This document shows, piece after piece, positions 33,535 to 35,425 of a stretch of DNA of 64,000 nt. The DNA is taken from the sequence record PV659873.1, one strand, 5' to 3'. Made by a program: the position numbers and the translations under genes. The notes below the pieces were generated by a model. It saw only the letters and a program-made list of their open reading frames with translations. It was not told where the DNA came from and searched no databases. How positions within the stretch are numbered: position 1 is the first letter of the stretch; each line of letters starts with the position of its first letter. Source of the stretch: Escherichia phage WPEC1.

Positions 33535-33939
33535 TTATTGAAGTTTAAGTGAACCACGAAGACGTTTCTCTTGCTGATCACGGATATATTGTGGAACCTC
33601 GTGAATTGAATCATTACCGTGCCTATTTTCAACAACTAAAGAGATAACTTGATAACCAAACTCTTCAGCAAGAGCTAGATAAGGTTTAAGTTCTTTCTCT
33701 GTGGTTGAAGTATTAGAAACAATAATCTTGTTAAGATTAGATGCCATAGCATCACGAACAATACCCTGACACCATGCGTGTGCTTTACCTACATTTTCTG
33801 GCTTCCAATCGTAAACACCACTCTCTGTGTAATGATATTGATCTGCCTCACAGATAGGCCAATAACCTTCAGAAATAATTTCTGCTACTGTAGATTTACC
33901 AGCACCTGAAACACCACGTAAAATGATAAGTTGTTTCAT
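33535..33939 (-). CDS. P-loop kinase (polynucleotide kinase-like)
   Basis: Walker A GVSGAGKST at N-terminus; small kinase fold; adjacent to RNA ligase. Confidence 0.65.
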   Translation of the reverse strand: MKQLIILRGVSGAGKSTVAEIISEGYWPICEADQYHYTESGVYDWKPENVGKAHAWCQGIVRDAMASNLNKIIVSNTSTTEKELKPYLALAEEFGYQVISLVVENRHGNDSIHEVPQYIRDQQEKRLRGSLKLQ

Positions 33940-34872
33940 TTATCCTCCAAAAAAGTTTTCGATTTTTTCACGTCGCTCTTGCTGATTTAAAGCAGCCCAT
34001 TGAATCTTCGTAAAATTATTTCGAATCCATTCTAACAAAGCGTAATATTCTTCGTCAACCATTTGTTTGGCATTTTTTGGATTATCCCAAATCAGATCCC
34101 ACTTTTTATCTCCACCGCGCATAAGAAACTTCTTAGTAAGATAGTGTGGTGATTTAATTTTTAAAAGTAAGTTGAACGGATAGTTTGTTTCACGAACTAC
34201 AAACCCTTCGTGTTTACAATGTTTAGACATTTCAACAACATCTGAAAACTTAACCATTGGATGAACTTCAGGACGCTTAAATTTGGTGACAGAAGCAATT
34301 CCATCAAGAGCACCTTCAGGTAACATAAAACTTGTCCCATCAGGATTTTGAATTCTGGCACCAATTAAGTATGCACCTGGTTCTTCTTCGACAATATGCG
34401 GATCAGAAGGATCACAGATTTCAAAAAGGAAAGTTGCTTTTGCACTCTCTGTCCATTTGATGAAATGTTCTATGTCATCACACTCTGAAACAATATGATT
34501 CTTTGCAATACTTGCAAAATCTGATTCAAGGCTTCCTGTTGTCGATACAATAAGTTGACCTTTATATACACCTACAGAGGCCATAAAACCATTTACTTTA
34601 CGAACCACATCTACAAGTTCATCCGCTGGTAGATCTGTGCCATTCTCAAAACGATTAAAAATCTTAGTGAAAGGCCAAATAACAACATTGTCATCAGCAT
34701 CAACAACGATTCCGCGACATTCTAGAAGACGAGAATCAATGCTCCATAAGTTATCCCAGAAAACTTTGTTCTTATACTTAAGAACAGATAGACCAGAATA
34801 CTCTCCTTCTTTATATGTTTTCTTATGAACTAAACCTTTTTCAACCAAATCGTCGCAATTAAATTTAGCCAC
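33940..34872 (-). CDS. RNA ligase family protein
   Basis: Nucleotidyltransferase motifs KVNGFMA (motif I), EGFVVR (IV), LLLKIK (V). Confidence 0.7.
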   Translation of the reverse strand: MAKFNCDDLVEKGLVHKKTYKEGEYSGLSVLKYKNKVFWDNLWSIDSRLLECRGIVVDADDNVVIWPFTKIFNRFENGTDLPADELVDVVRKVNGFMASVGVYKGQLIVSTTGSLESDFASIAKNHIVSECDDIEHFIKWTESAKATFLFEICDPSDPHIVEEEPGAYLIGARIQNPDGTSFMLPEGALDGIASVTKFKRPEVHPMVKFSDVVEMSKHCKHEGFVVRETNYPFNLLLKIKSPHYLTKKFLMRGGDKKWDLIWDNPKNAKQMVDEEYYALLEWIRNNFTKIQWAALNQQERREKIENFFGG

Positions 34873-34873
34873 A

Positions 34874-35425
34874 TTATTCTCCTTTGATTATTTTGTGATG
34901 GTCTACAGTCACGATATCTCGTTTACTCATCATAGAAATTATCTCATCAAAATGCAAGATTTTTCCGTGTGCATCCCAACCCACATCTAACATTTTACCA
35001 TAAGCTTCATCAGGGAAAGATCCGTGGGAATGCCCGTGTAGCATGATTGATCCACGACCTTGTTTATTCCAGGAGGCCATAGGGTAATGGCTTAAGACGA
35101 AGAACAGCTTCTGATATTTCACTTCGTCATAATACACCACTTCTCCATACTCTGCAAGCACTTCTTGGTGTTTGCTGTAGTCATGGTTCCCAACACAGTA
35201 GGTGATATCTCCTTGGAGACGGGAAGCAATTTTACGGGTATCTTCTTCAGTTCCGAAACAGAAGTCGCCCAAATGCCACATCTTAACACCAGGAGTAGTA
35301 GCACATTTGTTCCATGCTTCGATCAAGGCTTCTGTCATGTGGTCCATATCTTCCCACGGACGATATTCAGGAGCAAACTCTCGAATACGTTTATGCATAA
35401 AATGCAAATCGCTTGTAATAAACAT
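34874..35425 (-). CDS. calcineurin-like metallophosphoesterase
   Basis: DLHF, GDFCFG, GNHD, GHSH metal-ligand motifs. Confidence 0.8.
   Translation of the reverse strand: MFITSDLHFMHKRIREFAPEYRPWEDMDHMTEALIEAWNKCATTPGVKMWHLGDFCFGTEEDTRKIASRLQGDITYCVGNHDYSKHQEVLAEYGEVVYYDEVKYQKLFFVLSHYPMASWNKQGRGSIMLHGHSHGSFPDEAYGKMLDVGWDAHGKILHFDEIISMMSKRDIVTVDHHKIIKGE

Follow-up and report, generated by a model that had tools for sequence, protein, structure and literature searches.

Do three adjacent genes in the genome of a coliphage together form a pathway for the repair of broken RNA? We addressed this question for a 64,000-nucleotide stretch of Escherichia phage WPEC1 (sequence record PV659873.1), which in its full length we call the window. 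The initial annotation of the window had reported a P-loop kinase, an RNA ligase and a phosphoesterase in a row on the minus strand, and had proposed them as a cassette for the repair of tRNAs cut by host anticodon nucleases. Our analysis indicates that the three genes probably constitute a split-gene RNA end-healing and sealing system. This joint function is suggested because the genes abut, because their linkage is conserved while their order is shuffled, because they are fused to one another in other genomes, and because the family and fold assignments of the products agree with it. We infer the enzymatic activities, RNA rather than DNA as the substrate, and a role in counter-defence tRNA repair. 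The three genes are:

33535–33939, minus strand: kinase, 134 amino acids (aa); stand-alone P-loop kinase, predicted 5′-OH polynucleotide kinase, with the motif RGVSGAGKST
33940–34872, minus strand: ligase, 310 aa, GTG start; predicted ATP-dependent RNA ligase of the Rnl1/Trl1 clade, with the motifs KVNGFMA, EGFVVR and LLLKIKS
34874–35425, minus strand: metallophosphoesterase (MPE), 183 aa; binuclear, aq_1665/COG4186-like, with the motifs SDLHF, LGDF, GNHD and HGHSHG

The cassette and its gene products

All three open reading frames (ORFs) and all of the motifs quoted for them were found at 33535–35425, as annotated. The TAA of the ligase gene directly abuts the ATG of the kinase gene, which is preceded by a GGAGGA Shine-Dalgarno sequence. 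A single base separates the TAA of the MPE gene from the GTG of the ligase gene, and the ATG of the MPE gene is overlapped by the TAA of the gene upstream (TAATG). The cassette lies within a long block of small co-directional genes that runs from about 39000 down to a DNA ligase gene at 31665–32792. The cassette had been described as next to the DNA ligase; the two are near each other, with three small ORFs between the DNA ligase and kinase genes. A scan of 31000–40000 for promoters and terminators gave counts close to the shuffled expectation and was uninformative.

The window comes from a Phapecoctavirus. Over 31600–36800 its sequence does not differ from that of Escherichia phages WPEC2, WPEC4 and WPEC6 (100% identity). 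Among other Phapecoctavirus genomes the best matches over the same stretch, with Mt1B1_P17, ukendt, ESCO13 and Schickermooser among them, are about 98–99.9% identical. Since the three genes are 100% identical to annotated coding sequences in WPEC2 and WPEC4 and have close matches in other Phapecoctavirus records, the cassette ORFs are real genes. In the reference records the kinase is labelled “putative polynucleotide kinase” or “ATPase”, the ligase “putative RNA ligase” or “RNA ligase 1 and tail attachment protein”, and the MPE “phosphoesterase” or “metallophosphatase”. The PHROGs labels are “ATPase” (2e-56), “RNA ligase and tail fiber protein attachment catalyst” (3e-70) and “phosphoesterase” (5e-56), respectively. 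In a PADLOC search the cassette proteins matched no defence-system family beyond weak P-loop matches.

The only Pfam assignment of the ligase was PF09511 RNA_lig_T4_1, matched over profile positions 1–227 of 227 with 56.8 bits (cut-off 28.3; E 3.8e-15), in agreement with the RNA ligase-family gene named in the initial annotation. A single-sequence phmmer search of the protein against PDB sequences returned nothing at E ≤1. We found 1743 homologues and built a profile from 28 of them, with identities down to 51%. Against the PDB, this profile matched T4 Rnl1 (2c5u at 1.1e-9; also 9do4 at about 1e-9) with the whole nucleotidyltransferase domain aligned, and structures of T4 Rnl1 were the only matches with E <0.1. 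K92-V-N-G, F150-E151, E222-G223 and K238-I-K240 are invariant in the 28 homologues. The invariant residues R53, K70/F72, K92, E151, E222/G223 and K238/K240 align to ECRG, EKFFN, KEDG, FEF, EGY and KIK of T4 Rnl1, so that motifs I, III, IV and V and the equivalents of R54, K75 and F77 are conserved in the family. The predicted nucleophile is K92. Motif I has the KxNG form that is typical of fungal Trl1 (PMC10946426); KVNG of the phage ligase agrees with it, whereas KEDG of T4 differs.

An AlphaFold2 model of the ligase, computed on the homologue alignment, had a predicted local distance difference test score (pLDDT) of 92 and a predicted template modelling score (pTM) of 0.87. The top 10 PDB matches of this model in Foldseek were all T4 Rnl1 or the ligase domain of fungal Trl1 (Trl1-LIG; 6n0t, 8rbj and 9qw7), with E values of 4e-12 to 4.5e-11. 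Archaeal Rnl3 followed at about 1e-9, and Rnl5 and Rnl2 at 2.5e-6 or weaker; for DNA ligases the E values were no better than about 1e-4. The structure of the CthPnkp (Clostridium thermocellum Pnkp) ligase domain has been solved. That domain is absent among the 50 fold matches listed for the model. In the model, residues 242–310 after motif V form a helical region of about 70 aa, in which the basic residues K247, K248, R252, K257, R300 and R301 are conserved. An identity as a DNA ligase or a capping enzyme was also considered, with a negative outcome, as Pfam, the homologue profile and the fold were all of the Rnl1 type. By profile and predicted fold, the protein is thus a member of the Rnl1/Trl1 clade of ATP-dependent RNA ligases.

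The motif GVSGAGKST of the P-loop kinase is present in the 134-aa ORF, which matches Pfam AAA_33 at 2.7e-10 and phrog_2071/phrog_505, and in PHROGs weakly also polynucleotide kinase. A single-sequence PDB search with the kinase gave P-loop noise only. A profile of 27 homologues from related viral loci matched T4 Pnk (1ly1 at 4.2e-8, query 1–128 against chain 1–144; 1ltq at 1e-7), the CthPnkp kinase (4gp7 at 7.3e-7, query 4–132 against chain 11–143) and Capnocytophaga Pnkp1 (4xrp at 1.7e-8, profile positions 3–96). The best matches spanning most of the profile were T4 Pnk, the CthPnkp kinase and the tRNA(Sec) kinase PSTK. Mammalian PNKP matched at positions 56–104, and adenylate, shikimate and gluconate kinases in the P-loop region only. 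Invariant among the 27 homologues are R8, G9, G12, G14, K15, T17, D33 and H113, which include the P-loop G9-V-S-G12-A-G14-K15-S-T17, and in the alignment D33 falls on the catalytic D35 of T4 Pnk. The protein consists of the kinase domain only and carries no phosphatase domain; the kinase plus HAD architecture of T4 Pnkp was not found. The possibility of an unrelated nucleotide kinase was judged negative on the basis of the polynucleotide-kinase profile matches and of the fusions to the ligase family in phage contigs and bacteria described below. These comparisons predict a 5′-OH polynucleotide kinase of the T4 Pnk/CthPnkp kinase clade.

The third product matched Pfam Metallophos with 25.1 bits (cut-off 21.5), consistent with the calcineurin-like phosphoesterase reported at the outset, and belongs to phrog_547. 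The motifs of the dinuclear site are invariant in 29 homologues (H8, G53-D54, G79-N80-H81, H113, G131-H132 and H134; D6 in ≥90%), and H11 is invariant as well. In the PDB, the MPE profile matched Aquifex aq_1665 (1xm7) at 2.9e-23 and GpdQ-like enzymes at 1e-3, and did not match the CthPnkp (4j6o) or lambda (1g5b) phosphatases at E ≤0.01. By these profile searches, the MPE is placed outside the CthPnkp/lambda-phosphatase-type sub-family. The CthPnkp phosphatase domain belongs to the same dinuclear metallophosphoesterase superfamily, and in PMC2190708 it is described as a 2′,3′-cyclic phosphodiesterase/monoesterase. A literature search for the function of the aq_1665/COG4186 family found no paper, and the family is one that has not previously been tied to RNA repair by experiment. 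We predict the MPE to be an end-healing enzyme for 2′,3′-cyclic phosphates or 3′-phosphates.

Linkage in other genomes and relation to known repair systems

To assess how regularly the three genes occur together, we used 80 IMG/VR viral loci with a ligase homologue 40–88% identical to that of the window, on contigs of 5 to 300 kb, and searched the ORFs within 6 kb of the ligase with hidden Markov models (HMMs). A kinase was detected in 72 of the 80 loci (adjacent or fused in 46) and an MPE in 65 (adjacent in 33). Ligase, kinase and MPE were found together in 59/80 loci, 26 of them with a contiguous trio. The order was MPE-ligase-kinase in 36 loci and kinase-ligase-MPE in 21. Kinase and ligase form a single ORF of 421–432 aa in 11/80. 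For one of these fusions (L059) Pfam confirmed both AAA_33 and RNA_lig_T4_1; for another (L056) Pfam gave AAA_33 alone, and the ligase part was recognized by tblastn and the ligase HMM.

In cellular genomes the ligase is rare, with 34 loci among 185,579 species. Cardiobacteriaceae encode a kinase-ligase fusion of about 490 aa, with an MPE of the same family directly after it in 3/4 loci and about 750 nucleotides (nt) downstream in the fourth. Leptolyngbya-type cyanobacteria carry a single kinase-Metallophos-ligase protein of 712–781 aa (L086–L117; e.g. L099, 3768–5906), whose kinase and phosphatase domains match CthPnkp at 3.5e-11 and 2.5e-24, the latter against 4j6o. Thus, in the fused cyanobacterial proteins one MPE family has been swapped for another in the same slot. 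In at least 10 of the cyanobacterial loci, all of one lineage, the RNA ligase RtcB lies 0–1.6 kb downstream of the fused gene (L099: 7508–8689). In the Leptolyngbya locus L099, a scan of six ORFs next to the fused gene showed no Hen1-like methyltransferase. Judged from its sequence, the cyanobacterial protein, in which CthPnkp-type healing domains are joined to an Rnl1-type ligase domain, may represent a hybrid form of Pnkp that is as yet undescribed. Because the synteny persists with shuffled order, because there are two kinds of fusion, and because one MPE family replaces another, we infer that kinase, MPE and ligase act on one substrate, RNA.

The initial annotation equated the cassette with the healing and sealing activities of phage T4, Pnk plus RNA ligase. 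This appears correct for the logic and the protein families, and not for the 3′-healing enzyme, which is predicted to be an MPE instead of the T4 HAD phosphatase. Like T4 Pnkp and Rnl1, which counter PrrC, the cassette is predicted to combine a 5′ kinase, a 3′ phosphoesterase and an ATP-dependent RNA ligase from a lytic coliphage. The whole domain of T4 Pnk aligns with the cassette kinase, D35 included, and the ligase shares with T4 Rnl1 its fold and the motifs around K99, E159, E227/G228 and K240/K242. Unlike the HAD domain of T4 Pnkp, which is fused to the kinase, the MPE is a separate binuclear enzyme. Moreover, the 134-aa kinase carries no aligned counterpart of T4 R38, and the ligase differs from T4 Rnl1 in motif I (KVNG versus KEDG), in T112 (versus K119) and in the length of its C-terminal helical region (about 70 versus about 120 aa). 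The cassette genes are contiguous, whereas pseT and gene 63 of T4 are not adjacent.

Bacterial Pnkp systems (Clostridium thermocellum, Capnocytophaga Pnkp1) likewise combine a P-loop 5′ kinase, a binuclear metallophosphoesterase and a ligase. The profile of the cassette kinase matches Pnkp1 and the CthPnkp kinase, and the cyanobacterial relatives of the ligase are fused to CthPnkp-type domains. In contrast to Pnkp, the cassette consists of three polypeptides and its MPE is of a different family, that of aq_1665. With respect to the Pnkp-Hen1 pair, a scan of the ten ORFs from 32780 to 36778 showed no Hen1-like methyltransferase. Fungal and plant Trl1 (LIG-KIN-CPD) resembles the cassette in that its ligase is an equal fold match, in the KxNG motif I, and in the physical or genetic coupling of the ligase to a P-loop polynucleotide kinase. 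The cassette differs from it by its prokaryotic and viral setting and in having no 2H cyclic phosphodiesterase domain.

Iyer et al. 2022 described a related, sirtuin-linked arrangement of type 2 for phage V5 and Proteus phage Mydo; its T4-like ligase, cREC, nucleotide kinase, MazG and calcineurin-like phosphoesterase genes are all present here. cREC is a receiver-like domain that the Aravind group predicted to process 2′,3′-cyclic phosphates (PMC7824862, PMC9503650). In the rV5-like locus of Salmonella phage PVPSE1 (L006) the order is MPE-x-x-ligase-cREC-kinase-SIR2-DNA ligase-x-x-MazG, and the ligase is 80% identical to that of the window. Two features set the window apart from the type 2 neighbourhood: the cassette has no sirtuin, and the cREC gene has moved upstream of the MPE gene. 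Furthermore, the MPE is not an occasional member but a core partner across phages (65/80). A tblastn search with the SIR2 protein of L006 gave no match better than E 0.11 in the window, where three unrelated small genes occupy the place of the sirtuin. Phapecoctavirus Mt1B1_P17 encodes a 55%-identical Sir2 about 26 kb from its cassette. The cassette of the window belongs to the arrangement of Iyer et al. 2022, as a version that lacks the sirtuin.

In distant phages, several other genes were repeatedly found no more than 6 kb from the ligase: NAMPT in 27 loci, PRPP-synthetase-like genes in 31, Macro in 14 and an Rv2179c-like 3′-5′ exoribonuclease in 17 (examples, from IMG/VR loci L004–L083: L081, 8714–10078; L004, 1652–2545; L028, 11903–12391; L058, 5415–5996). 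Such neighbours link the RNA-repair module to the salvage of nicotinamide adenine dinucleotide (NAD+) and to ADP-ribose processing. As components of the window, these four and the sirtuin were considered and set aside, since none of them is present there.

Proposed pathway and alternative explanations

In the pathway that we propose, a metal-independent ribonuclease, for example an anticodon nuclease, would cut the RNA and leave 2′,3′-cyclic-phosphate and 5′-OH ends. The 134-aa kinase would phosphorylate the 5′-OH, and the MPE would open and remove the 2′,3′-cyclic or 3′-phosphate to give a 3′-OH, possibly with help from the upstream cREC protein. The ligase would then adenylylate itself at K92, transfer adenosine monophosphate to the 5′-phosphate and join the ends. 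As the target, tRNA broken by host anticodon nucleases seems most plausible, going only by the T4 precedent and the general abundance of tRNA-targeting defences.

A role in RNA repair is not a new prediction. It was already proposed for the neighbourhoods of phages V5 and Mydo (PMC9503650) and for the kinase-ligase pair of Pakpunavirus (PMC12846349), and it is implied by GenBank annotations. A literature search for phAPEC8 together with RNA ligase found no paper. tRNA-cleaving defences are now seen as common, and include PrrC, RloC, PARIS, retron effectors, Cas13 collateral cleavage and Schlafen-like nucleases. To our knowledge, T4 Pnkp-Rnl1 is the only experimentally established repair answer of a phage. 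The kinase-ligase-MPE module would add another one, which appears to be far more widespread (1743 ligase homologues; 80 IMG/VR loci). If the pathway holds biochemically, it would provide a function for the aq_1665/COG4186 family and a compact RNA repair kit of three proteins. Phapecoctavirus and rV5-like phages are found in therapy collections, and the module could then help to predict which of the therapeutic coliphages withstand RNA-targeting immunity.

A number of observations weigh against this pathway. In the kinase, no arginine aligns with R38 of T4 Pnk, which lies in a part of T4 Pnk that is inserted with respect to the profile, and the lid arginine R106 (ENRHG), which aligns near T4 R122/R126, is lost in distant members. 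The ligase was rejected as an orthologue of T4 RnlA, as it scored 24.1 bits with the NCBIfam equivalog TIGR02308, for which the cut-off is 242.25. N94 and T112 are invariant in the ligase family where T4 Rnl1 has D101 and K119; these two T4 residues and the C-terminal tRNA-specificity domain were reportedly the subject of mutational work in the Shuman laboratory. The C-terminal domain of T4 Rnl1 comprises about 120 aa and confers tRNA specificity. Because the modelled helical region that follows motif V in the phage ligase has only about 70 aa (residues 242–310), tRNA specificity cannot be assumed for it. Regarding the MPE, its only close solved relative, aq_1665, is a structural-genomics protein without known function, and a weak NCBIfam match points to the ligase-associated DNA-damage endonuclease PdeM (E 0.0024). 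Counting the window, 44 of 81 loci have an ORF of the DNA-ligase cluster no more than 6 kb from the RNA ligase. Finally, a literature search found no tRNA-cleaving host system that restricts Phapecoctavirus or this phage group.

The fold of the ligase and the neighbourhood of its relatives bring up a Trl1-like route, in which cREC or the MPE would open the cyclic phosphate to a 3′-OH/2′-phosphate end, the KxNG ligase would need or tolerate the 2′-phosphate, and a phage sirtuin, with its gene at another place in the genome, would remove it to NAD+, as KptA/Tpt1 does. Motif I of the ligase follows the KxNG of fungal Trl1 and not the KEDG of T4 (PMC10946426), and the Trl1-LIG structures fit the model as well as T4 Rnl1. 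The SIR2 gene directly after ligase-cREC-kinase in the rV5-like relatives, the 55%-identical Sir2 retained in Mt1B1_P17 and the NAMPT, PRPP-synthetase-like and Macro genes found repeatedly around the ligase of distant phages fit the same route, and exactly this role of the sirtuin was proposed in PMC9503650. However, it is the MPE (65/80) that accompanies the ligase most consistently, and not cREC (10) or SIR2 (11), and no phosphate is left behind by an MPE of the CthPnkp type. A sirtuin is absent from the window, that of Mt1B1_P17 is some 26 kb away from the cassette, and the 2′-phosphate-binding arginines of Trl1 (R334/R337) could not be mapped onto the ligase. We therefore regard this route as unlikely. 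In its fullest form, phages would have a Trl1-style repair in which cREC is a new metal-independent 2′,3′-cyclic phosphodiesterase, the ligase joins 2′-phosphate ends and the sirtuin clears the phosphate with NAD+, while, separately, the aq_1665-type MPE represents a new family for the healing of RNA 3′ ends; we consider this picture similarly doubtful. If true, the Trl1-style route would connect RNA repair in phages with NAD+ salvage, whose genes are repeatedly found next to the ligase in other phages.

Compared with an RNA substrate, the processing of DNA ends appears very unlikely. Kinase and MPE would here clean 5′-OH and 3′-phosphate DNA ends, or the MPE would act as an endonuclease, for the neighbouring DNA ligase in replication, recombination or the repair of restriction damage, and the Rnl1-like enzyme would seal there too. 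The DNA ligase gene is indeed only three small genes away and its linkage within 6 kb (44/81 loci) as well as the PdeM match speak for such a role, as do the RdgC-like, exonuclease and MazG genes in the same region of the reference genomes and the fact that T4 Pnk acts on DNA too. On the other hand, the partner that is fused or strictly adjacent is the RNA-ligase-family enzyme and not the DNA ligase, which varies in position and distance and is missing from about half of the loci. The fold of the ligase groups with the RNA-specific Rnl1/Trl1 enzymes, with DNA ligases far worse, and in cyanobacteria the fused protein has the RNA ligase RtcB as its genomic partner. Less probable still is a housekeeping role, in which the module would mature or recycle the tRNAs or mRNAs of the phage itself after cleavage by phage or host RNases, rather than counter a defence. 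The cassette is about 4.6 kb (35425 to 40052) from the phage cluster of 10–11 tRNAs on the opposite strand, and fungal Trl1, the other structural relative of the ligase, is a tRNA-splicing enzyme. Nevertheless, all tRNAs of the cluster are complete matches to the 71-position Rfam tRNA model, in a search not aimed at introns, and ARAGORN gave six of them normal anticodon positions. The module also seems to occur in many phage lineages whatever their tRNA content, and the T4 pair is needed only on hosts carrying prr. Lastly, the three genes could be mere neighbours: an MPE for a nucleotide second messenger or a protein phosphatase, a nucleotide kinase, and a ligase homologue that attaches tail fibres like T4 gp63. 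The PHROG label of the ligase carries the gp63 name “tail fiber protein attachment catalyst”, the kinase has weak, P-loop-only matches to deoxynucleoside monophosphate and adenylate kinases, and the MPE family has no known substrate. This explanation is extremely improbable in view of the kinase-ligase and kinase-MPE-ligase fusions and of the shuffled synteny that persists across phages whose ligases are 40–50% identical; in addition, every catalytic motif is invariant across the ligase family, which a purely structural chaperone would not need. RNA end healing and sealing by the three proteins is thus the explanation that we favour.

Neighbouring genes and the rearranged part of the window

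We also analysed the genes around the cassette and the tRNA cluster, with the following features:

35425–35781, minus strand: protein of unknown function, 118 aa, phrog_839, PF26092; embedded in the operon
35788–35931, minus strand: ORF of 47 aa between the cREC and phrog_839 genes; no Pfam family, “hypothetical” in reference phages
35941–36297, minus strand: cREC (cyclic-phosphate-processing receiver-like) protein, 118 aa; Pfam cREC_REC PF20274, 1.6e-13
31665–32792, minus strand: ATP-dependent DNA ligase; Pfam DNA_ligase_A_M, phrog_114; a frequent neighbour of the cassette, not a member
42429–43154, plus strand: MazG-like nucleoside triphosphate pyrophosphohydrolase; Pfam PRA-PH 2.7e-6; displaced and inverted in the window
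43211–44089, plus strand: RdgC-like protein; Pfam RdgC 7e-22
40052–41484, plus strand: first half of the tRNA cluster (Met, Arg, Ser, Tyr-like, Asn, Thr, Gly), by ARAGORN and Rfam; genomic context of the cassette and at most its possible substrates

The phrog_839/PF26092 gene was tried as a fourth core part of the repair module and rejected, as the HMM search found it near the ligase in only 3/80 loci. Its profile had no match among PDB sequences, and a confident AlphaFold2 model had no fold match. The membership of this gene in the module is doubtful. The cREC gene lies two genes upstream of the MPE gene and is probably a lineage-specific accessory of the cassette, which would thus reach further upstream than the three genes of the initial annotation. 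A cREC gene occurs in 10/80 viral loci; those of the rV5-like type have it between their ligase and kinase genes. The cREC gene of phage ukendt (ukendt_198; window 35941–36297, minus strand; L118, 4342–4698) is labelled “putative RNA ligase and tail attachment protein”, and the records of ESCO37 and anhysbys contain the same ligase/tail-attachment product name within the matched stretch. The cREC protein has no ligase domain, and from its sequence this name appears to be a propagated error.

The window is colinear with the reference phages only over 31501–41570, so the idea of an unbroken piece of the genome was rejected. On the immediate downstream side of the DNA ligase, 29500–31600 is a patchwork of repeated 77- and 152-nt fragments in direct and inverted orientation. 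In the reference genomes, the RdgC-like and MazG genes lie just downstream of the DNA ligase on the strand of the cassette, with the MazG-like gene two small genes away from the ligase on the same strand (WPEC4); 42207–45024 of the window is an inverted copy of this segment. In all, 29500–31600, 41570–57600 and 61973–63601 are rearranged relative to all reference Phapecoctavirus genomes examined. The tRNA cluster is split by about 15 kb of rearranged sequence, its halves lie on either side of the head/terminase/portal module (45025 to about 54760), and the junctions carry 77–154-nt duplications that lead to extra partial tRNA-Gln. With its k-mer-sized overlaps, the rearrangement looks like an artefact of short-read assembly and not like biology, and the cassette is unaffected by it. 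The initial annotation had drawn on two tRNA clusters in the window as an argument for counter-defence. Every reference genome examined has a single contiguous cluster, and this argument falls because the split looks like an assembly artefact.

Two details of the tRNA genes were also recorded. The tRNA-Gln(TTG) calls at 56544–56616, 56621–56696 and 62543–62610 come from duplicated junction fragments, in a place where reference genomes have one tRNA-Gln; 56457–56610 and the sequence from 56610 onward overlap by 77 nt in reference coordinates, and 62549–62704 is an inverted copy. A seventh tRNA, at 40749–40833 on the plus strand, with 39 bits in Rfam, was missed by ARAGORN and is annotated as tRNA-Tyr in WPEC2 and WPEC4. 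tRNA-Tyr is the target of retron-Eco7. Some phages evade retrons via the production of specific tRNAs (PMC11555353).

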